A stretch of 52,642 nucleotides of DNA, from the NCBI GenBank assembly GCA_038229915.1, contig JBBRNY010000004.1:1-52642 (forward strand), given 5' to 3'. Within the stretch, counting starts at the first letter, position 1. Each line of letters begins with the position of its first letter. The stretch comes from Candidatus Kapaibacterium sp. GTDB taxonomy: Bacteria; Bacteroidota; Ignavibacteria; Palsa-1295. This document shows positions 21,330 to 29,455 of this stretch, one piece after another. The position numbers and the translations under genes are program-made. The notes beneath the pieces were generated by a model, which searched no databases, was not told where the DNA came from, and saw only the letters and a program-made list of their open reading frames with translations.

Positions 21330-21992
21330 CTAGTGGGCATTCCCTTTATTCCAGTTTGGGATGTATCCGTCGTTGCGGATCAGATCATTGATCAACTCAA
21401 TATCTCGCACCCTTGGCAAGAGATCAATCAGATGTTTTTTCAGTACTTCGAGCCGCTGATTCTCGCTTTTTACGAGCAGGAGCGTCTGTCGTTGTTCAGG
21501 CGAAAGCCCTGATTTCTGGGCTACAGCAAACGATGGTTGCATCGGTTCGGACTTCATCATTGATGCGTCGATCATCTCAACGGTGCCTTTGTAGGCGACC
21601 TCACAAAGCTCATTAAAGAGCCCGATCACCTCGATTGCCAGTTCTTCGTCACGAACTTCTGGGTCGTCGTCGATCCACTGAATTTGTGCATACGAAAGCT
21701 CGTTTGGCTCGCCTTGCTCAAACTTGACGACTTCGTATCGCCGAACCCCTTCGGTCACAATATCGAGCTTCCCATCAGGATAGCGTTTAGTGACTTCTGC
21801 AATTCGTGCCGCACAGCCAACCGAGTGCATATTTTGATCTTCGATAAAATTTATACCGAAGATCCCTTTTTGCTTCAGCACATTGAGACACAACTTTTTG
21901 TAGCGGTCCTCAAAGATATGCAGAGGGATACGCGAAGCCGGAAACAGCACGACGCCAAGTGGGAACACCGGTATGCGTTCAATTTCGCTCAT
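21330..21992 (-). CDS. Stand-alone Lon protease substrate-binding (Lon-N) domain protein
   Basis: Motifs IPVFPLGVVLFP...PLHIFEDRY, VGC.A.I and GVRRYEV; no AAA+ or protease domain. Start moved to 21992. Confidence 0.9.
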   Translation of the reverse strand: MSEIERIPVFPLGVVLFPASRIPLHIFEDRYKKLCLNVLKQKGIFGINFIEDQNMHSVGCAARIAEVTKRYPDGKLDIVTEGVRRYEVVKFEQGEPNELSYAQIQWIDDDPEVRDEELAIEVIGLFNELCEVAYKGTVEMIDASMMKSEPMQPSFAVAQKSGLSPEQRQTLLLVKSENQRLEVLKKHLIDLLPRVRDIELINDLIRNDGYIPNWNKGNAH

Positions 21993-21994
21993 TC

Positions 21995-22201
21995 CTATTG
22001 TTGTTCTTCCTGCCAAAGTTCATACCAAGCCATTTGTACCGCCTCAAGCTTTGCCTCGTTCGAGAGATGAATATCATCTTCCCAGTCCGCCAACGCCGCA
22101 ATCCAATCACGAAGATCGGTATATCGTACCGACAACGGATCAACCCCAGGCTTAGCAAGTTGTAAGGCTTCGGCTATATCTTCAATGTCTTTCCAGAACA
22201 T
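21995..22201 (-). CDS. iscX: Fe-S cluster assembly protein IscX (YfhJ)
   Basis: W.D..DIAEAL, DPLSVRYTDL..W and SNEAKLEAVQMAW; lies after fdx. Confidence 0.95.
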   Translation of the reverse strand: MFWKDIEDIAEALQLAKPGVDPLSVRYTDLRDWIAALADWEDDIHLSNEAKLEAVQMAWYELWQEEQQ

Positions 22202-22221
22202 AATAATTGTTGAATTAAGAA

Positions 22222-22563
22222 TTATGCCCCTGTTGCACCTTCGTGGAACAAATGGGCGATCGAAGCATTTAATTGTGGGATCTGCACGACAAGATCAACA
22301 TCTTCGGTCAAGCGTGACTGACATCCAAGACGCGAATCAAGGGTCAGCCCTTCGGCTTCGTCGAGCTGATCCGCTTCGTCGTCAAGCTGTTCGGTCAAGG
22401 CATTCATCCCTTGTGTGACGATCACATGGCAGGTCGAGCATGCGCAGACACCGCCGCAATTGTGTTGTAAGTCAATGCCATTAGCGAGCGCAACGTCCAA
22501 GACGCTATCGCCAATAAGTGCTTCGCACGTAATGTGCATTGGTTCGAAAGTGATCGTAGCCAC
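22222..22563 (-). CDS. fdx: ISC-type [2Fe-2S] ferredoxin
   Basis: HNCGGVCACSTCHV and SRLGCQ. Confidence 0.95.
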   Translation of the reverse strand: MATITFEPMHITCEALIGDSVLDVALANGIDLQHNCGGVCACSTCHVIVTQGMNALTEQLDDEADQLDEAEGLTLDSRLGCQSRLTEDVDLVVQIPQLNASIAHLFHEGATGA

Positions 22564-22591
22564 AAGGGATAATTAAGAATGAAAGATAGTA

Positions 22592-23224
22592 TTATCGAGC
22601 AGCGAATTTTTTGTAGCGATCATTCACTCTGCCCCAATGAATATCAGCAATAAAGTTATCAATATAAGCGGCGCGCTTCGGTCCGTCTTTATGGTAGTAT
22701 GCATGTTCGAAGACATCACAAGCAACAAGCGGCACCGCACCCCAGACAGCACCGTAGTGATGCTCATCGACAAGGACGTTGCGAAGCTGACCTGAGCCGA
22801 GTTGATCGACGATCAACACTCCCCAACCAGAAAGTTTTGCAGAAACAGCGCAGGCTTTAAAGTCAGCTTTCCAGGCATCAACCGTTCCGAAATCACGCTC
22901 GATCATTGACAGAACATCTGGTGCTTTTGATGTGTCACCATCACCACCAAGATTTTCCCAATAAAGATCGTGAAGCACGTTGCCACCATGATTCCAAGTC
23001 CAACGGCGTTTCAGCTCACCATAAATCGAATAATTACCATTGGCCTTAGCAGCATCAGCAGTTTCAAGCGCTTTTTCGATCTCGTTTAACTTATCGACAT
23101 ATCCCTTGTGATGTGCATTGTAATGCCAATCGCTCGTTTCGGCATCAACAACTTTCGCAAGAAGAGTTTTTGCTTCTTCGTTTGAATACGGACGGGGTTT
23201 GAGTTTGTAATCGTATGCTTTCAT
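22592..23224 (-). CDS. Fe/Mn superoxide dismutase family protein (divergent, Aquifex-like)
   Basis: Metal-ligand motifs HYNAHHKGYV, NHGGNVLHDLYW and DVFEHAYY; also SGWG and IHWGRVNDRY. Confidence 0.9.
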   Translation of the reverse strand: MKAYDYKLKPRPYSNEEAKTLLAKVVDAETSDWHYNAHHKGYVDKLNEIEKALETADAAKANGNYSIYGELKRRWTWNHGGNVLHDLYWENLGGDGDTSKAPDVLSMIERDFGTVDAWKADFKACAVSAKLSGWGVLIVDQLGSGQLRNVLVDEHHYGAVWGAVPLVACDVFEHAYYHKDGPKRAAYIDNFIADIHWGRVNDRYKKFAAR

Positions 23225-23239
23225 ATTCGTTATTGATAG

Positions 23240-25126
23240 TTACGCATGTTCAATAGCCTTGCCACTCAAAGCCTGAGAAACAGATGCGTTTAAGATCTCA
23301 TGAGCCATCGGCTCGGTTCGCTGTTCGAGGGTCTCGGTCAGCGCCAAAATTTCTTTTGCGTCATCAGTGGAAATTGCTTTTCGCAAAGCATAGAGAGAGT
23401 CAATGATCTGATCGATCTTTAACGCTCCGAGCGATTCTTTTGAAAGAATGATCGTACCACGACGAATGTCGCCTAATACTTTTTCGGTTGCATTGGCAAC
23501 GCGCTCACCTTCGGTTTTTGCTTCGCCGAGTCTTCGAGCGGCTATATCTTCTTTTGCATGAATAATACTTTCACGAAGCATACGCTCGATCTCCTCGTCG
23601 GTCAGACCATACGAAGGTTTTACTTCGATCTGCTGAGCAATGCCGGTATGGGTTTCGAGCGCACTTACGTGCAAAATACCATCGGCATCGATCATAAACG
23701 TCACTTCCACTTTCGCAGCACCCGCCGGAAGCGGAGGAATGCCTTTGAGTGTGAATGATGCAAGGTGGCGGTTGTCTTGCACAAGGTCGCGCTCGCCTTG
23801 AAAAACATTGATCTCTACACCGGTTTGATTGTCGGCAAAAGTCGTATAAGCTTCTTTTGCTGTCGTCGGGATGGTTGTGTTACGAGAAATGATCGTACTC
23901 ATCATCGATCCGATCGTTTCGATACCAAGCGAAAGCGGCGTCACATCAAGTAGTAATATCTCTGACATCCCCCCCGAAAGAACATTTGCCTGTATCGCAG
24001 CACCAAGTGCAACCGTTTCGTCCGGATTGAGTGAGTCATGGGGCTTCCTCCCGAAAAGCTCTTGCACCAACTGCTTCACCATTGGCATTCGTGTTGAGCC
24101 GCCGACAAGAACAACTTCGTCAATTCCACTTGCTTTGATATGAGCATCAGCAAGTGCATCGATACAAGGTTGCTTTGTTTTGTCAAGTATTGGGCGAGCC
24201 ATCATTTCAAGTTCGCCGCGAGAAACGTTACGTTTATAATTTATAGATAATCGTGGAAGTTGGAGATCAACTGTGACATTTTGTGCGTCGCTCAAAGCGA
24301 TCTTTGCGCGCTCGGCTTCTTGGCGTATTTGCTGAAGCTCTTCGGGAGTTGGGGTAAAACTTGGCTCGATCCGTTGCAATTGCGAAATAAACAACTCCAT
24401 CAAACGACGATCAATGTCATCGCCACCAAGATATGTATCACCGTTAGTCGAAAGAACTTCGAAAATTCCGTTGGTGAGTTTTAAGATCGAAACATCAAAG
24501 GTACCACCACCAAAATCATAGATCGCGATGATCCCGTTCTTCTTTTTATCAAGCCCATAAGCCAGTGCAGCCGCTGTTGGCTCGTTAACAATACGCAACA
24601 CATCAAGCCCAGCAAGGCGTCCGGCGTCTTTGGTAGCTTGGCGTTGCGAGTCATTAAAATAGGCTGGCACGGTGATAACAGCTTTGGAAACCGGTTCGCC
24701 AAAATATTTTTCGGCACGTTCTTTCAGCTCTTTCAGAACAAATGATGAAAGTTCGATCGGGGTATATTCACGATTCCCAATTCCGACACGAACCAGACCC
24801 TCGTCGCGAGGCACCAATTTGTACGAGAGCATCCCTGATTCTTTTTTTACATCAGAAAAGGATTTGCCCATTAATCGCTTCACTGAGTACACCGTATGTC
24901 CTGCATCAATAAGTGCACGACGCTTTGCCGGAGTACCGACAGCCATCACTGCGCCATCGTCATCTAATGTAACGACTGAAGGCACAAGTCCACCATCGCG
25001 ACCCGGAATCACTTTCGCTTCGCCTGCTTCGACGTATGCAACAAGAGAATTTGTTGTACCAAGATCTATCCCGACGACTTTGCCGCCTGTTTGTTCTTGC
25101 CCTGGTAATGAAATTTGTAGTGGCAC
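23240..25126 (-). CDS. hscA: Fe-S protein assembly chaperone HscA
   Basis: Hsp70 motifs ([21 protein letters not shown]) plus HscA-type N-terminal [15 protein letters not shown] and VKPSYGL; ISC context. Confidence 0.93.
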
Positions 25127-25135
25127 TAAAAAAAA

Positions 25136-25720
25136 TTAATATAGTTCTGGAAATAATTTACGCTCGGTGCATTCGATAGCGATGTGAATTACTTTGATAT
25201 GTAATTCTTGGATACGGTCGGTGGTCTTGCCGGGCGCGATGATCGCAACGTCGCAAAGCTCTTTCATCTTACCACCATCTTTACCAAGTAAGCCGACAAC
25301 TTTCATACCTTTGTTACGAGCCGTCTCTGCTGCAAGTAGAATGTTTTTACTATTACCTGAAGTCGTGATCCCAACAAATACATCTCCGGATTCACCAAAA
25401 GCTTCGACCATTCTCTGAAAGACAAATTCAAAACCATAGTCATTGGATGTACAGCTCATGTGTGACGGATCGGCGAAGGCAATAGCCGGAAGAGGCTTGC
25501 GATCCTTGCGATAGCGCCCTGTCCATTCCTCAGCAAAGTGCATTGCATCACAATGGCTTCCGCCGTTACCGGCACTATAGACTTTTTTGCCAGTCGTGAA
25601 TGCCGTTTCGAGAATGTTTACGAACTCGTTGATCTTCCCAAGCGACTCATCGCTCGAAAGGAATTCGTGAACTGCATGTTCTGCTTCGAGCAGTGATGCT
25701 TTGATGTGTTGGATACTCAC
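25136..25720 (-). CDS. gmhA: D-sedoheptulose-7-phosphate isomerase
   Basis: GNGGSHCDAMHFAEE.TGRYR, SC.SNDYG, TSGNSKN and DRIQELHIKVIH match E. coli-type GmhA. Confidence 0.92.
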   Translation of the reverse strand: MSIQHIKASLLEAEHAVHEFLSSDESLGKINEFVNILETAFTTGKKVYSAGNGGSHCDAMHFAEEWTGRYRKDRKPLPAIAFADPSHMSCTSNDYGFEFVFQRMVEAFGESGDVFVGITTSGNSKNILLAAETARNKGMKVVGLLGKDGGKMKELCDVAIIAPGKTTDRIQELHIKVIHIAIECTERKLFPELY

Positions 25721-25725
25721 AATTT

Positions 25726-26310
25726 TTAATGTCTTATGATGAGTGTCTTGCCTTCTTTTGCGGCGACAAGGGTTTCGTATAACGTTTGCAAGTACGATCT
25801 GGTGGCAAGAGAACGCGTCAGTGCTTCAAGAATCCTCTTCTCATCCGGGCTTTGCTCACTACCCGGAACACTATGCTCAGGAATGCTATCCCACTCATTT
25901 CTCATTGCGTCGATCTCTGACTTATGCGAAGCTATTCTAGCACTCAGATCTTGTTCGATGCTCAAGAGTTCACCGCCAAGTTTTGCACCGCTCTGCATCT
26001 GCTCGACAAATTCCTGCACATTCATTACCAACTCCAACAGATCCATCGGCACTTGCTTCGATCGCTCGACCGAATAGCCATAAATGGATAGCAAATATTT
26101 TGCCCGTGACATTGGCTCGCGAAGAATACGGTATGCTTGATTAATGAGGCTCGATTGCTCGAGCGATTCGGCAACAGCAACTTCCCCTTTTGTTGCTGAT
26201 CTATCGGGATGGTAACGACGCTGTAATTCGTGAAAACGCCGCTCAAGTTGAGCGGCGTCTTCGTCACGAAATTTGTGAGATATACCTAATGTGGTGAAAT
26301 GATCGTTCAC
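25726..26310 (-). CDS. hscB: Fe-S co-chaperone HscB
   Basis: J-domain with YHPDR, SSLINQAY.IL.EP..RAKYLL and LELVM. Start moved to the GTG at 26310 to remove the iscA overlap. Confidence 0.92.
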   Translation of the reverse strand: MNDHFTTLGISHKFRDEDAAQLERRFHELQRRYHPDRSATKGEVAVAESLEQSSLINQAYRILREPMSRAKYLLSIYGYSVERSKQVPMDLLELVMNVQEFVEQMQSGAKLGGELLSIEQDLSARIASHKSEIDAMRNEWDSIPEHSVPGSEQSPDEKRILEALTRSLATRSYLQTLYETLVAAKEGKTLIIRH

Positions 26311-26348
26311 AGTTGTTTTTTCCCTGCTGAGAGGGAAATTAATGGCTC

Positions 26349-26768
26349 TTAAACTCCGAATGAACTTCCGCAACCACAAGTCTTCGAGGCGTTCGGATTG
26401 TTGAACACGAATCCTCGACCGTTGAGACCATCGGTAAAATCAAGCTGTGTACCTGAAAGATAGAACAGCGACTTCGGGTCGATAAATAATTGAACGCCAT
26501 CGATCTTCAAGGTTTTATCACCTTCACGAGGTTCTTTATCAAAACCGAGTGAATATGAAAGTCCCGAGCAGCCGCCGCCCTTTACACCGACACGGAGACC
26601 ATACGTATCCGGGATGTTATTGGCCGCCATAATTTTGGCTACTTCGAGACGAGCTTTCTCGCTCAGCGAGATCTCTTCTTCGATATTCTCGAACGCTTTT
26701 TCGACAGTCGTCTCTTCAAGAGACGGCATCGCTACTACTTCTTGCTCCATCGTTTCCATAATATTCAT
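26349..26768 (-). CDS. iscA: A-type Fe-S carrier IscA/HesB
   Basis: LRVGVKGGGCSGLSY and NPNASKTCGCGSSF; acidic N-terminal extension. Confidence 0.93.
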   Translation of the reverse strand: MNIMETMEQEVVAMPSLEETTVEKAFENIEEEISLSEKARLEVAKIMAANNIPDTYGLRVGVKGGGCSGLSYSLGFDKEPREGDKTLKIDGVQLFIDPKSLFYLSGTQLDFTDGLNGRGFVFNNPNASKTCGCGSSFGV

Positions 26769-26779
26769 TCTTTCTAAAT

Positions 26780-27181
26780 TTATGCGTTAGCAGCATGCAA
26801 CACGGCTTGCTTCTTTTTGTAATCTTCGAGCGCAGCCTTGATCGCGTCCTCGGCAAGTACCGAGCAGTGGATCTTGACCGGCGGAAGATTCAACTCCGAA
26901 ACGATCGTCGTGTTTTTGATCGACAAAGCTTCTTCAACCGATTTGCCTTTGATGAGTTCTGTTGCAAAAGAGCTTGAAGCGATCGCCGAACCACAGCCGA
27001 ACGTTTTAAACTTCGCATCTTCGATGATACCATCATCGCTGATCTTGATCTGCAAGCGCATGACGTCGCCGCACTCTGGTGCGCCGACTAACCCTGTACC
27101 TACGGTTGGATCATTTGGGTCCATTGTTCCCACATTACGAGGATGTGAGTAGTGATCCATTACTTTTTCTGAGTATGCCAT
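26780..27181 (-). CDS. iscU: Fe-S scaffold IscU
   Basis: Motifs GAPECGDVM, FKTFGCGSAIASSS and LPPVKIHCS. Confidence 0.98.
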   Translation of the reverse strand: MAYSEKVMDHYSHPRNVGTMDPNDPTVGTGLVGAPECGDVMRLQIKISDDGIIEDAKFKTFGCGSAIASSSFATELIKGKSVEEALSIKNTTIVSELNLPPVKIHCSVLAEDAIKAALEDYKKKQAVLHAANA

Positions 27182-27239: not shown

Positions 27240-27731
27240 CTATTTCTTGAGCCACGGTGGCGGTGCCTTCGCACCGGCAGGCGTTGCTCCTGCGGTTGCA
27301 GGTGCGGCCGTTGGTGCTATTGCCGCTGCTACAGGTGTCGGCGCTGCTGCTGCGGCGGGTTTAGCCGCTGCAGGTGCCGGTGCTGCCGCGACTCGTGCTG
27401 GTGGCATTGCGTCGGGTGTTACACCTTGAAATGCCGCGATCGTGCCGCCTTCTTTTGGCGTCGAAAGCTCAGGGTAATTCAAAATATATCCTTGAGGGTT
27501 CACACGCTTAAAAATTCCTGTTTGTTCATACGAACGAGCAACGTCTTTGGCGATCGTCTCTGCCTTTTCGTTGCCGATCGTTATGCCCTGCTTATCTTCA
27601 TAATATTCTTGGATCGAAAACTGCAGATCACGAAAGAATATGTTCGAATTATGAAATACCGGTTTATGTATTTCACGCATATAGCTCAAGAGCTCATATG
27701 GGTACTCGATAAAGATATCTGCCTGTGTCAT
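27240..27731 (-). CDS. Uncharacterised protein within the isc operon; ~95-aa domain plus Ala/Pro-rich tail
   Basis: Lies between iscS and iscU on the same strand. Core FHNSNIFFRDLQF...LNYPEL, then an AP-rich linker ending PPPWLKK. Start moved to the ATG at 27731. Confidence 0.8.
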   Translation of the reverse strand: MTQADIFIEYPYELLSYMREIHKPVFHNSNIFFRDLQFSIQEYYEDKQGITIGNEKAETIAKDVARSYEQTGIFKRVNPQGYILNYPELSTPKEGGTIAAFQGVTPDAMPPARVAAAPAPAAAKPAAAAAPTPVAAAIAPTAAPATAGATPAGAKAPPPWLKK

Positions 27732-27799: not shown

Positions 27800-29032
27800 T
27801 TAGTGATGTGCCCATTCGATCGTTTTGAGATCGACACCCATTTTCGCCAACTCATAGAGCGGCGACATATCACGAAGATGCTCGACCGCACCGATCAATT
27901 GCTTCTCGGTATAATCAATTTCTTCAGGTGTCGTAAAACGTCCCATACCGAAACGAAGCGACGTATGAGCTAAGTCTTCGCCAACGCCGAGGGCTTTCAA
28001 AACATAGCTTGGTTCGAGTGTCGCCGTAGTACAAGCAGAGCCTGAACTGACAGCAATATCTTTAATACCCATCATCAATGACTCGCCTTCGACAAATGCG
28101 AAGCTAACGTTGAGGTTGCCCGGCAAGCGTCTGTTTGCATCGTTGATCGGGTCAGGTCCGTTAATATAGACTTCATCGAGTGCGCTGGTGATCTTATTCC
28201 AAAGTGAATCACGCAGTCCTTGTATGCGCGGCACTTCGATTGGCATTTCAGTAACGCAAAGCTCAATAGCTTTTGCCAAGCCGACGATACCAGGTACGTT
28301 CAATGTACCCGAACGCATACCACGCTCGTGACCACCGCCATCCATTTGGGATGCAAGCTTTACACGTGGATTTTTCTTACGAACATAGAGCGCACCAACA
28401 CCCTTCGGTCCATAAACCTTATGGCCGGAGAATGATGCAAGATCGACGTTCATTTTAATGACATCAAACGGTACTTTCCCTACCGATTGGGTGGCATCGG
28501 TATGGAAGATCACGCCTTTGTCATGACAAATTTTTCCGATCGCTTCGATATCTTGTATCGTACCTACTTCGTTGTTGACGTGCATCAACGACACAAGGAT
28601 CGTTTTATCGGTAATCGCATCACGAAGCTGATCGTGATCGACAAACCCTTCTTTATCTACCGGCAAATACGTTACGCGGTAGCCTTTGCGCTCAAGTGCT
28701 TTGCAAGTATCAAGCACCGCTTTATGCTCGGTGGTCGCCGTGATGATATGATCGCCTTTCGACGCGTACATTTCGGCGATGCCTTTGATAGCCAAATTAT
28801 CTGACTCGGTTGCACCACTGGTGAAGACGATCTCCTTTTCATCTGCACCAATATATTTTGCGATCGTCGCACGACCCCAATCAACACCTTCCTCAGCCTT
28901 CCATCCGAAAGGATGGTTGCGACTGGCGGCATTTCCATAATACTCGGTAAAGTATGGCATCATTGCCTCCAATACTCGAGGGTCGAGCTTGGTGGTTGCA
29001 TTATTGTCTAAATAGATCGGCAGCTTCAACAT
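27800..29032 (-). CDS. iscS: Cysteine desulfurase IscS
   Basis: Motifs [37 protein letters not shown] and the IscS tail MSPLYE...IEWAHH. Confidence 0.98.
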
Positions 29033-29053: not shown

Positions 29054-29455
29054 TTAGAGCAATTCCGAGATCGTCATATTCCCAACCGACTCGGTAAGTC
29101 TCACCTGTAATTTTTGCATCGGCACCTTGATCGTGCAAGAATCAAACATTGCGCAAGTCTCATGGTCGGGGTTTTCCGTAGCACACTCGGTGATCGCGGT
29201 TTCTTCATCAAGCGAAGAAACGACGCGGTTCAGCGTGATCTGTTCCGGCGACAAGAGCAGTCTATACCCTCCGCGAACTCCTTGAAAAGAATCAATGATG
29301 CCATCACGCTTCATTGATTGCATTACTTTCGCAAGTAAGTCGTGCGGGATGTTTGACGAATCCGAAATCTCACGCGTAGTGGCTACCTGACCTGACTTCG
29401 CCAGATACTGTAATGCCATTAAACCATATTCTACACGTTTCGAGATTCTTAACAT
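29054..29455 (-). CDS. Rrf2-family Fe-S-sensing regulator (IscR-like position)
   Basis: wHTH with S.QG.RGGY.L; three Cys spaced C-x9-C-x5-C; first gene of the isc cluster. Confidence 0.9.
   Translation of the reverse strand: MLRISKRVEYGLMALQYLAKSGQVATTREISDSSNIPHDLLAKVMQSMKRDGIIDSFQGVRGGYRLLLSPEQITLNRVVSSLDEETAITECATENPDHETCAMFDSCTIKVPMQKLQVRLTESVGNMTISELL

Follow-up and report, generated by a model that had tools for sequence, protein, structure and literature searches.

A tailed winged-helix protein of iron-sulfur operons in one bacterial class shares its terminal motif with respiratory and redox subunits

Accessory proteins of iron-sulfur (Fe-S) cluster assembly and targeting through short motifs are both known kinds of system. 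IscX (YfhJ), which is acidic and has a winged-helix-like fold, binds the cysteine desulfurase IscS, and HscA recognises the LPPVK peptide on the scaffold IscU. Little is known about how bacteria decide which apo-proteins are to be given scarce Fe-S clusters. In mitochondria part of this choice falls to the LYR motif, which, according to PMC6584224, is present in SDHB, SDHAF1 and LYRM7 as well as in complex I proteins and is bound by HSC20, such that one short motif on Fe-S recipients (respiratory complexes I-III) and on accessory factors brings in the delivery machinery. Here we report on a gene in a stretch of 52,642 nucleotides from Candidatus Kapaibacterium sp. (GenBank assembly GCA_038229915.1, contig JBBRNY010000004.1, positions 1 to 52,642; henceforth ‘the window’). 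An earlier note, made from the sequence alone, had drawn attention to an unknown open reading frame (ORF) that splits the iscS-iscU pair, and our analysis bears this out: the ORF at 27240-27731 on the minus strand, whose protein is named X here, encodes 163 amino acids and lies directly between the two genes. X is not a chance ORF, as it has 91 homologous clusters, 189 representatives in a profile search and invariant residues. Our main finding is that the motif at the end of X is common to X and to the cytoplasmic termini of NuoI, Rieske/cytochrome b or KorB in four lineages. In the reading that we tentatively favour, X assists Fe-S biogenesis as an accessory protein of restricted lineage and its tail is a docking peptide for a putative receptor common to respiratory and redox enzymes.

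Among the described systems, the LYR motif offers the closest known logic, and the X system appears to work like it without being a member. The likeness is that the same short motif is found on recipients and on an accessory factor. The differences are that the motifs of X take the form K-x-PPP-[WF], LPPLxSAKP or a Lys-rich helix, stand in disordered termini and vary between lineages, and that X is unrelated to the LYRM proteins; nor is there an [LIV]-[YF]-[RK] motif read by an HscB C-domain, the motifs being different and one of the families concerned having no HscB. X resembles IscX in being small, Cys-free and encoded in an isc operon and, in the family of the window's genome, also in being acidic. 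However, it has no sequence relation to IscX, it is long-tailed, it occurs in SUF operons, and its own operon contains a true iscX, which matches the IscX profile (PF04384, Fe-S_assembly) at 6.9e-22 whereas X does not match it; profile-profile comparison (hhalign) of X with the operon's IscX gave a probability of 0.8%. The earlier note had also remarked that the window has no cyaY (frataxin), and we found no match to PF01491 anywhere in the host genome, which is 98.66% complete. Because the host genome lacks cyaY, it is conceivable that X, as a possible desulfurase regulator, is a functional stand-in for frataxin, although X has another fold (not the alpha-beta sandwich) and no sequence match to it. 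Finally, Tic62 and TROL are reported to tether the soluble redox protein FNR to the thylakoid membrane system through a polyproline II helix; there, as possibly in X, the tether consists of Pro-rich repeats that terminate a flexible region, but the system is a plant one and its sequence is unrelated.

A terminal motif on X and on respiratory or redox subunits

The tail of X (residues 95-163) is about 60% Ala+Pro by count on the translation, in agreement with the Ala/Pro linker ending in APPPWLKK that had been noted before, and AlphaFold2 models it at a pLDDT of about 50-67 (50-60 in the linker). Among close relatives the linker drifts in sequence while its composition and length are kept, and the last eleven residues are almost fixed; one genus has replaced the Ala/Pro linker by one that is not Ala/Pro. 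The tail is thus a flexible spacer, and its end, here called the hook, behaves like a short linear motif under selection: the end is near-invariant against a drifting linker and is met with again on further proteins encoded by the same genome. The earlier note had proposed the terminal peptide as a docking motif. By the end of the tail, 239 X proteins could be sorted into 88 with PPW followed by basic residues (class 1), 7 with LPP[LI]-K/S repeats (class 2), 8 with a Lys-rich helical repeat (class 3) and 136 without a recognised hook. All three hook classes are net basic and have a hydrophobic core. Longer proteins bearing an X tail were sought and none scored, although this negative is weak, since low-complexity words crowd the candidates.

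In the host genome, a search with X found a second carrier of PPWLKK, the b6-type cytochrome b of the Rieske/cytochrome b operon (347 amino acids, PF00033), the Ala/Pro tail of which ends KPAPPWLKK. Six-frame scans of this genome showed that X and cytochrome b are the only long ORFs to end in PW-x-K/R-K/R and that a 40-amino-acid Ala/Pro-rich stretch is present in three ORFs only, namely X, cytochrome b and NuoI. Likewise, K[AP][APT]PP[WF] or KPPP[WF] occurred, among 15,181 frames of at least 60 amino acids, only in X, NuoI (twice) and cytochrome b. Loosening the scan brought in a 2-oxoacid:ferredoxin oxidoreductase beta subunit (KorB, TPP_enzyme_C), which has PPPF-K and PPPM-x-K at its N-terminus, and a second hook at the N-terminus of cytochrome b.

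These motifs recur throughout the family, inside the class, that contains the window's genome (henceforth ‘the host family’; f3, f4, f5, f7 and f12 denote other families). In 5/5 other host-family genomes the coding pattern for PPW[LIM]KK occurred exactly twice, in X and in cytochrome b, and the reversed control gave 0 matches in these five. The ending K-x-x-P-P-W-[LM]-K-K was identical between the C-termini of X and cytochrome b in all 12 genomes compared, and all 13 cytochrome b C-termini read end PPW[LM]KK, one of them (G312) with an extra residue after it; a tailed cytochrome b orthologue is present in 16 of 35 host-family genomes. NuoI carries at least one copy of GG[VIL]KPPPF in 17/17 cases (a single copy in one, two or three in the others). 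The N-terminal PPPF hook of KorB was found in 12/12 host-family proteins as opposed to 0/11 orthologues from outside, and the N-terminal PPKPPP[LIF]xKxKK of cytochrome b in 12/12, being missing in two outside orthologues. Hook copies within a genome differ at synonymous sites, which indicates that the peptide, not the DNA, has been kept. A search with the NuoI tail returned NuoI-type Fer4 proteins of 200-260 amino acids in 29/29 matches and no new family of carriers. The C-terminal extension of NuoI in the host genome (contig C11; L121 1964-2638, plus strand) is about 75 amino acids long and consists of a charged helix, an Ala/Pro linker and two KPPPF; the extension of KorB (contig C56; L173 2993-4111, minus strand) is N-terminal, about 45 amino acids long with PPPF and PPPM, and specific to the host family.

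We considered whether the hook of X depends on a tailed cytochrome b and rejected this, as a genus without a cytochrome b orthologue (0/15 genomes) retains the hook: APPPWMKK or a variant of it stands on 9/12 X ORFs read from this genus, at the end of the linker that has ceased to be Ala/Pro, and two further stretches had no X motif. A further possibility is that ribosomes stall on the polyproline end APPPW and that the stall tunes translation of the gene behind it, which is iscU for X and subunit IV for cytochrome b. PPP and PPW stall ribosomes in the absence of EF-P, and both genes with PPWLKK have the next gene of the operon some 50-60 nucleotides on. However, hooks also occur at N-termini (KorB, cytochrome b, Rieske) and as internal repeats (NuoI), which weakens this explanation, classes 2 and 3 are not polyproline stallers, and the W-L-K-K that follows the prolines is invariant too; we regard stalling as very improbable.

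Outside the host family the motifs differ and the sharing recurs; of the lineages in which a motif was recognised, all but one have it on cytoplasmic termini of Fe-S-containing complexes of energy metabolism too. In one f3 genus the X tails carry repeats of LPP[LI]xSAKPxGG, and in 4/4 genomes of this genus the occurrences of LPP[LI]xSAKP were confined to X and to the Rieske protein, the long cytoplasmic N-terminal extension of which has two copies just ahead of the membrane anchor. In a fifth f3 genome, where X has a plain Ala/Pro tail, the pattern was unmatched. In a genome of family f7 (G049), X ends in a helical motif; its 12-amino-acid core is present once in X, five times in the C-terminal extension of NuoI and nowhere else in the genome, and one Kapaibacteriota metagenome-assembled genome (MAG) has a matching pairing of X with a NuoI that bears four repeats. 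In genomes with a short X, no such motifs were present on the NuoI tails read. As a separate observation, a contig labelled as an uncultured alphaproteobacterium MAG (L119 7883-11160) encodes NuoH, NuoI and NuoJ that by eye are very similar to those of the Kapaibacteriota MAG (L118), as are the NuoI repeats, so that the label or the binning of L119 may be wrong.

The f3 tails, with 3-6 copies of LPP[LI]-K/S and many of them ending LPPLK or LPPIK, have the Pro-Pro-hydrophobic-Lys core of the IscU peptide, and this raises the explanation that the hooks are Hsp70 (HscA/DnaK) binding sites which mimic LPPVK and recruit the cluster-releasing chaperone. The host family lends it further support, for it alone has hscB-hscA in the X operon and a head-proximal [LMI]PPx(x)K is present in 44/88 of its PPW-type members; at the corresponding position, residues 108-112, the window's X has M-P-P-A-R. 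In f3, which has the LPP[LI]K tails, however, the HscA/HscB pair was not found: 4/4 genomes have a single Hsp70 (48-50% identical to HscA and presumably DnaK) and no match to HscB, which weakens the explanation. The host family does have HscA and HscB, and there the tails carry APPPWLKK or [LMI]PPx(x)K. Since, in addition, the helical class-3 hook is unlike LPPVK and the window's IscU retains an LPPVK of its own, we consider chaperone recruitment improbable.

The head of X and the operons that encode it

The earlier note had described the first 95 or so residues as a Cys-free domain with a winged-helix-like pattern, which the structure prediction supports. AlphaFold2 (44-row alignment) gave a pLDDT above 90 over residues 1-93, with predicted elements H5-9, H11-20, E30-32, H33-48, H54-71, E74-78 and E81-84, and the order helix1-strand1-helix2-helix3-strand2-strand3 is that of a winged helix; there is no Cys anywhere in the translation of X. 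Fold searches with the head, including the Foldseek search that had been proposed, returned weak and generic winged-helix matches (best Foldseek E 0.044; best VIA Z-score 6.7, the matches including DpnI, JetB/MukF, cullin WHB and GntR domains). Neither Pfam nor NCBIfam contains a family matching X (E ≤0.01), weak Pfam matches over 49 members showed none that was consistent, and a profile search of PDB sequences matched the low-complexity tail only and gave no relative of solved structure. The ESM Atlas yielded only the unnamed clusters of the family itself, the nearest named ones (DsrD, DUF2492, DUF6958 and DpnI_C, at 0.75-0.76) being a lead only. A predicted complex of the IscS dimer with the X head scored 0.00 against a mark of 0.32, which counts neither for nor against an interaction.

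Given this fold, X might be a nucleic-acid-binding regulator of the Fe-S operon, acting with or after IscR, the tail being a spacer to which little specific meaning attaches. Winged-helix domains of GntR, Fur and DpnI are among the nearest folds, X stands directly after iscR in f4 and f5 (gaps of 4-22 nucleotides), and most members outside the host family are basic, with an isoelectric point of about 9-10. By contrast, the head is acidic in most of the host family, and a basic recognition helix together with a match to a regulator family (GntR, Fur, Rrf2 and others) was not found. In 49 aligned domains S29, F32 and D35 are invariant and N30 and R34 nearly so, and the conserved polar residues (H27, S29, N30, R34, D35, Q37 and E58) mark strand 1 and the start of helix 2. 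They lie off the usual recognition helix, which is variable and has a conserved Glu. A regulator would also leave the sharing of hooks unexplained, and we give this explanation little credence.

A word-seeded search yielded the 91 homologue clusters, every one unnamed or ‘hypothetical’, and a head-only profile built from 49 sequences and scored on 1.84 billion representative proteins (E ≤0.001) yielded the 189 representatives, which are 70-289 amino acids long with the domain at the N-terminus; no informative domain fusion was noticed among the 150 matches listed and the tails read. All source labels read Kapabacteria/Kapaibacterium, Ignavibacteriota, Bacteroidota or Chlorobiota. The earlier note had placed similar SNxFFRD proteins in isc loci of Acidobacteria and Ignavibacteria; Acidobacteria were not seen among the source names. 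In an even sample of the phylum, X was matched in 52/301 genomes, comprising the host, 50 more of its class and one of another class, where the match was weak and contained a stop codon. Several families have it in every genome (7/7, 7/7 and 5/5) and others in none (0/6, 0/9, 0/63 and 0/49). X is therefore a small, unannotated and lineage-restricted family, seen in one class of Bacteroidota-type bacteria.

The tabulation of gene neighbours, also proposed earlier, linked X to Fe-S genes without exception. In short loci (3 kb) from other families of the class, iscR and/or iscS lie directly upstream on the same strand in 27/29, and in the remaining two (one at a contig start, one preceded by nuoN) iscA and the superoxide dismutase (SOD) gene lie directly downstream, so that Fe-S genes adjoin X in all 29. 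Annotation of 20 long loci (up to 16 kb), for which Pfam and the proteins of the window served as references, gave IscA in 20, SOD in 17, IscR in 15, type-I IscS in 13, a SufU-like protein in 10 and true IscU in 2. The gene most constantly linked to X is iscA, which follows it directly in 10/20. SufB, SufC, SufD, SufS, SufU and SufT are encoded between these genes, as in the orders iscR-iscS-X-sufB-sufC-sufD-sufS-sufU-(sufT)-iscA-sod and iscR-X-sufBCDSU-iscA-sufT-sod outside the host family; only the host family has hscB-hscA within the X operon. A type-I iscS does not adjoin X in 7/20, and G181, an X-bearing genome that is 100% complete, gave no match to type-I IscS, the best match being SufS at 31%. 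X accordingly serves ISC-type and SUF-type operons alike and is a constant of the Fe-S operons of its class, not of the iscS-iscU pair. The proposal in the earlier note of a new ISC component thus stands in so far as X is conserved, unannotated and linked to Fe-S genes, and falls short in that X is found in SUF operons too and does not co-occur with iscS-iscU across bacteria as a core component would. A more specific role as IscS/IscU adaptor did not hold: X is present in SUF operons and without an adjoining iscS, and true iscU follows it in the host family only (2/20 long loci).

A further order outside the host family, iscR-iscS-X-iscA-sod or (iscR)-X-iscA-sod, stands directly after nuoLMN. 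This position, seen in f12 and f5, would suit hooks that are cationic-aromatic anchors on the membrane surface or co-clustering stickers and that hold X, and Fe-S assembly with it, near the respiratory membrane without any specific protein receptor. The motifs either combine Lys with an aromatic residue (Trp or Phe) or Leu or are amphipathic helices rich in Lys, and NuoI, cytochrome b and Rieske are situated at the cytoplasmic face of the membrane. Yet lipid binding does not require the near-identity of the X and partner motifs within each genome, a lipid anchor held on a tether of 50 residues would be of little benefit to a protein already in the membrane, and KorB is soluble. We consider such anchoring quite unlikely. 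In the two loci concerned, L099 (f12) and L106 (f5), the Fe-S operon with X lies directly downstream of nuoL-nuoM-nuoN.

Possible function of the hooks

The proteins that carry hooks in addition to X are cluster recipients or the partner of one. NuoI holds two 4Fe-4S clusters; Rieske holds a 2Fe-2S cluster, loaded in the cytoplasm before export; KorB is a cluster recipient, and cytochrome b is the partner of Rieske. In the accessory-protein reading that we favour, X would be built as a head, a fishing line and a hook. Proteins with a shared terminal motif would be expected to share a receptor, and all hook carriers may hence dock on a common one, for which the A-type carrier IscA, an Hsp70 or the winged-helix head itself are candidates. 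Given that an assembly operon encodes X and that clusters go in large part to the remaining carriers, which are major recipients, the most likely role of the hooks would be that of an address by which clusters are delivered or repaired. X itself would couple the assembly machinery, through its head, to the putative receptor, through its hook, either as an adaptor or as a matching pseudo-client. With such a peptide of about 10 residues, client targeting or the link between cluster assembly and the respiratory chain would become open to test, and the comparison also draws attention to tails of NuoI, cytochrome b, Rieske and KorB that are unexplained and that annotation passes over.

A bolder form of this proposal is that of a private peptide code, in which lineage-specific hooks on the cytoplasmic termini of NuoI, Rieske/cytochrome b and KorB mark priority clients for Fe-S maturation, X is the reader or adaptor with its own tail as a co-evolving pseudo-client, and the whole is an independently evolved bacterial counterpart of LYR. 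We consider this doubtful.

Several observations weigh against X as a docking accessory protein. The receptor is putative and the binding to it conjectural, and a model of the X monomer does not position the hook against the head with confidence (pLDDT about 65). Most X proteins (136/239) lack a recognised hook, so that the head must work without one. The net charge of the head is not conserved, being -1 to -4 in most of the host family (-4 in the window's X) and mostly +1 to +8 outside it. Cytochrome b is not itself an Fe-S protein, and the Ala/Pro-stretch scan of the host genome, made across the genome and not subunit by subunit for hooks, pointed to X, cytochrome b and NuoI only. In f12 the end of X reads PGDPF, for which a partner was sought and not found, as in 3/4 genomes it occurs in X only, and the f12 NuoI tails have no such motif. 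Helical repeats like those of class 3 are also present on the RnfC of a betaproteobacterium (Chitinilyticum), which suggests that the class-3 motif may be a general spacer.

Some of these features, and others of the host genome, would fit a different function. With their basic charge, the hooks may be lines that fish for ferredoxin or another soluble acidic electron carrier, or for its reductase, such as an FNR- or NuoEF-like module. By them NuoI and KorB would capture a redox partner, and X would supply the desulfurase or scaffold with reductant. In itself we consider this explanation unlikely; set against the docking of X for cluster delivery it carries almost equal weight. It would account for the net basic charge and hydrophobic core of all three hook classes, KorB is a ferredoxin-reducing enzyme, RnfC has similar repeats, and the window's operon includes fdx. 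The nuo operon of the host genome lacks nuoEFG, nuoD being directly followed by nuoH, and a separate NuoE/NuoF-like pair is encoded elsewhere. Such 11-subunit complexes may accept electrons from reduced ferredoxin (PMC3362086), and the reported tethering of FNR by TROL/Tic62 provides a precedent. On the other hand, a hook for ferredoxin would have no obvious use on the N-terminus of the f3 Rieske protein or on cytochrome b, and the f3 SUF-type operons with a hooked X have no fdx in the loci read. The NuoE-like and NuoF-like (Complex1_51K) genes lie on contig C2 (L200 441-1106 and 1375-2733, plus strand), away from the nuo operon, and may be a detachable electron-input module.

As far as we have seen, the X domain and the hook motifs are new, as is the way in which respiratory subunits share these motifs genome by genome. 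In the literature searched, from which supplementary files were excluded, no description of the X family or of these tails was found. Searches on C-terminal extensions of NuoI, proline-rich N-terminal extensions of Rieske proteins and alanine-rich tails of RnfC returned nothing relevant, as did those linking winged-helix proteins, suf and Bacteroidota. No paper was found on Ignavibacteria with iscS and iscU, and one names both Kapabacteria and iron-sulfur clusters; in the protein collections every match is unnamed.

Features of the window and neighbouring genes

Table 1. Positions in the window of gene X, its parts and the surrounding operon.
Feature	Position	Strand	Evidence or remark
Gene X: head, linker and terminal hook	27240..27731	-	163 amino acids plus stop; ORF and translation, homologues
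Cys-free domain, predicted winged helix, residues 1-95	27447..27731	-	signature F-H-x-S-N-x-F-F-R-D
Ala/Pro-rich linker, predicted disordered, residues 96-152	27276..27446	-	low pLDDT; variable sequence
Terminal hook GAKAPPPWLKK, residues 153-163	27243..27275	-	recurs on cytochrome b of the same genomes
iscS, type-I cysteine desulfurase	27800..29032	-	Aminotran_5 E 2e-87; immediately upstream of X
Rrf2/IscR-type regulator, first gene of the operon	29054..29455	-	Rrf2 E 5.6e-28
iscU, scaffold, LPPVK motif kept	26780..27181	-	NifU_N E 1.5e-53; immediately downstream of X
iscA, A-type carrier	26349..26768	-	Fe-S_biosyn domain after an acidic N-terminal extension of ~30 amino acids
Remainder of operon: hscB, gmhA-like SIS gene, hscA, Fe/Mn SOD, fdx, iscX	21995..26379	-	

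The start codon of X is the ATG at 27731 and its stop codon occupies 27240-27242; a TTG four codons upstream is a possible alternative start, although the homologues begin at the ATG. On the minus strand the genes follow one another in the order Rrf2/iscR, iscS, X, iscU, iscA, hscB, gmhA-like SIS, hscA, Fe/Mn SOD, fdx and iscX, an order that is repeated in two more host-family genomes (L112 and L113). The gmhA-like SIS gene (25136-25720, minus strand), which belongs to the sedoheptulose-7-phosphate isomerase family (TIGR00441, above cut-off), is situated between hscB and hscA and has the equal position in both of these genomes. The Fe/Mn SOD gene (22592-23224, minus strand) likewise lies within the isc operon, between hscA and fdx. 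The N-terminal extension of IscA is strongly acidic and could complement basic hooks.

The last gene of the operon (21330-22016, minus strand) encodes a protein that consists of the N-terminal substrate-binding domain of Lon alone, a possible peptide reader, and the operon of the f12 locus is likewise closed by such a protein (L099 6063-6704, minus strand). On the minus strand of contig C3 of the host genome, a 173-amino-acid frame shares its last six residues with HscB and may be an HscB paralogue. In the Kapaibacteriota MAG (L114 11884-12324, plus strand) the interval between iscA and hscB holds an additional ORF of 146 amino acids that is unmatched in Pfam. The RnfC of Chitinilyticum aquatile (L120 8180-10570, plus strand) is extended at its C-terminus by about 300 amino acids that include six helical repeats rich in Lys and Ala, to which no Pfam family corresponds.

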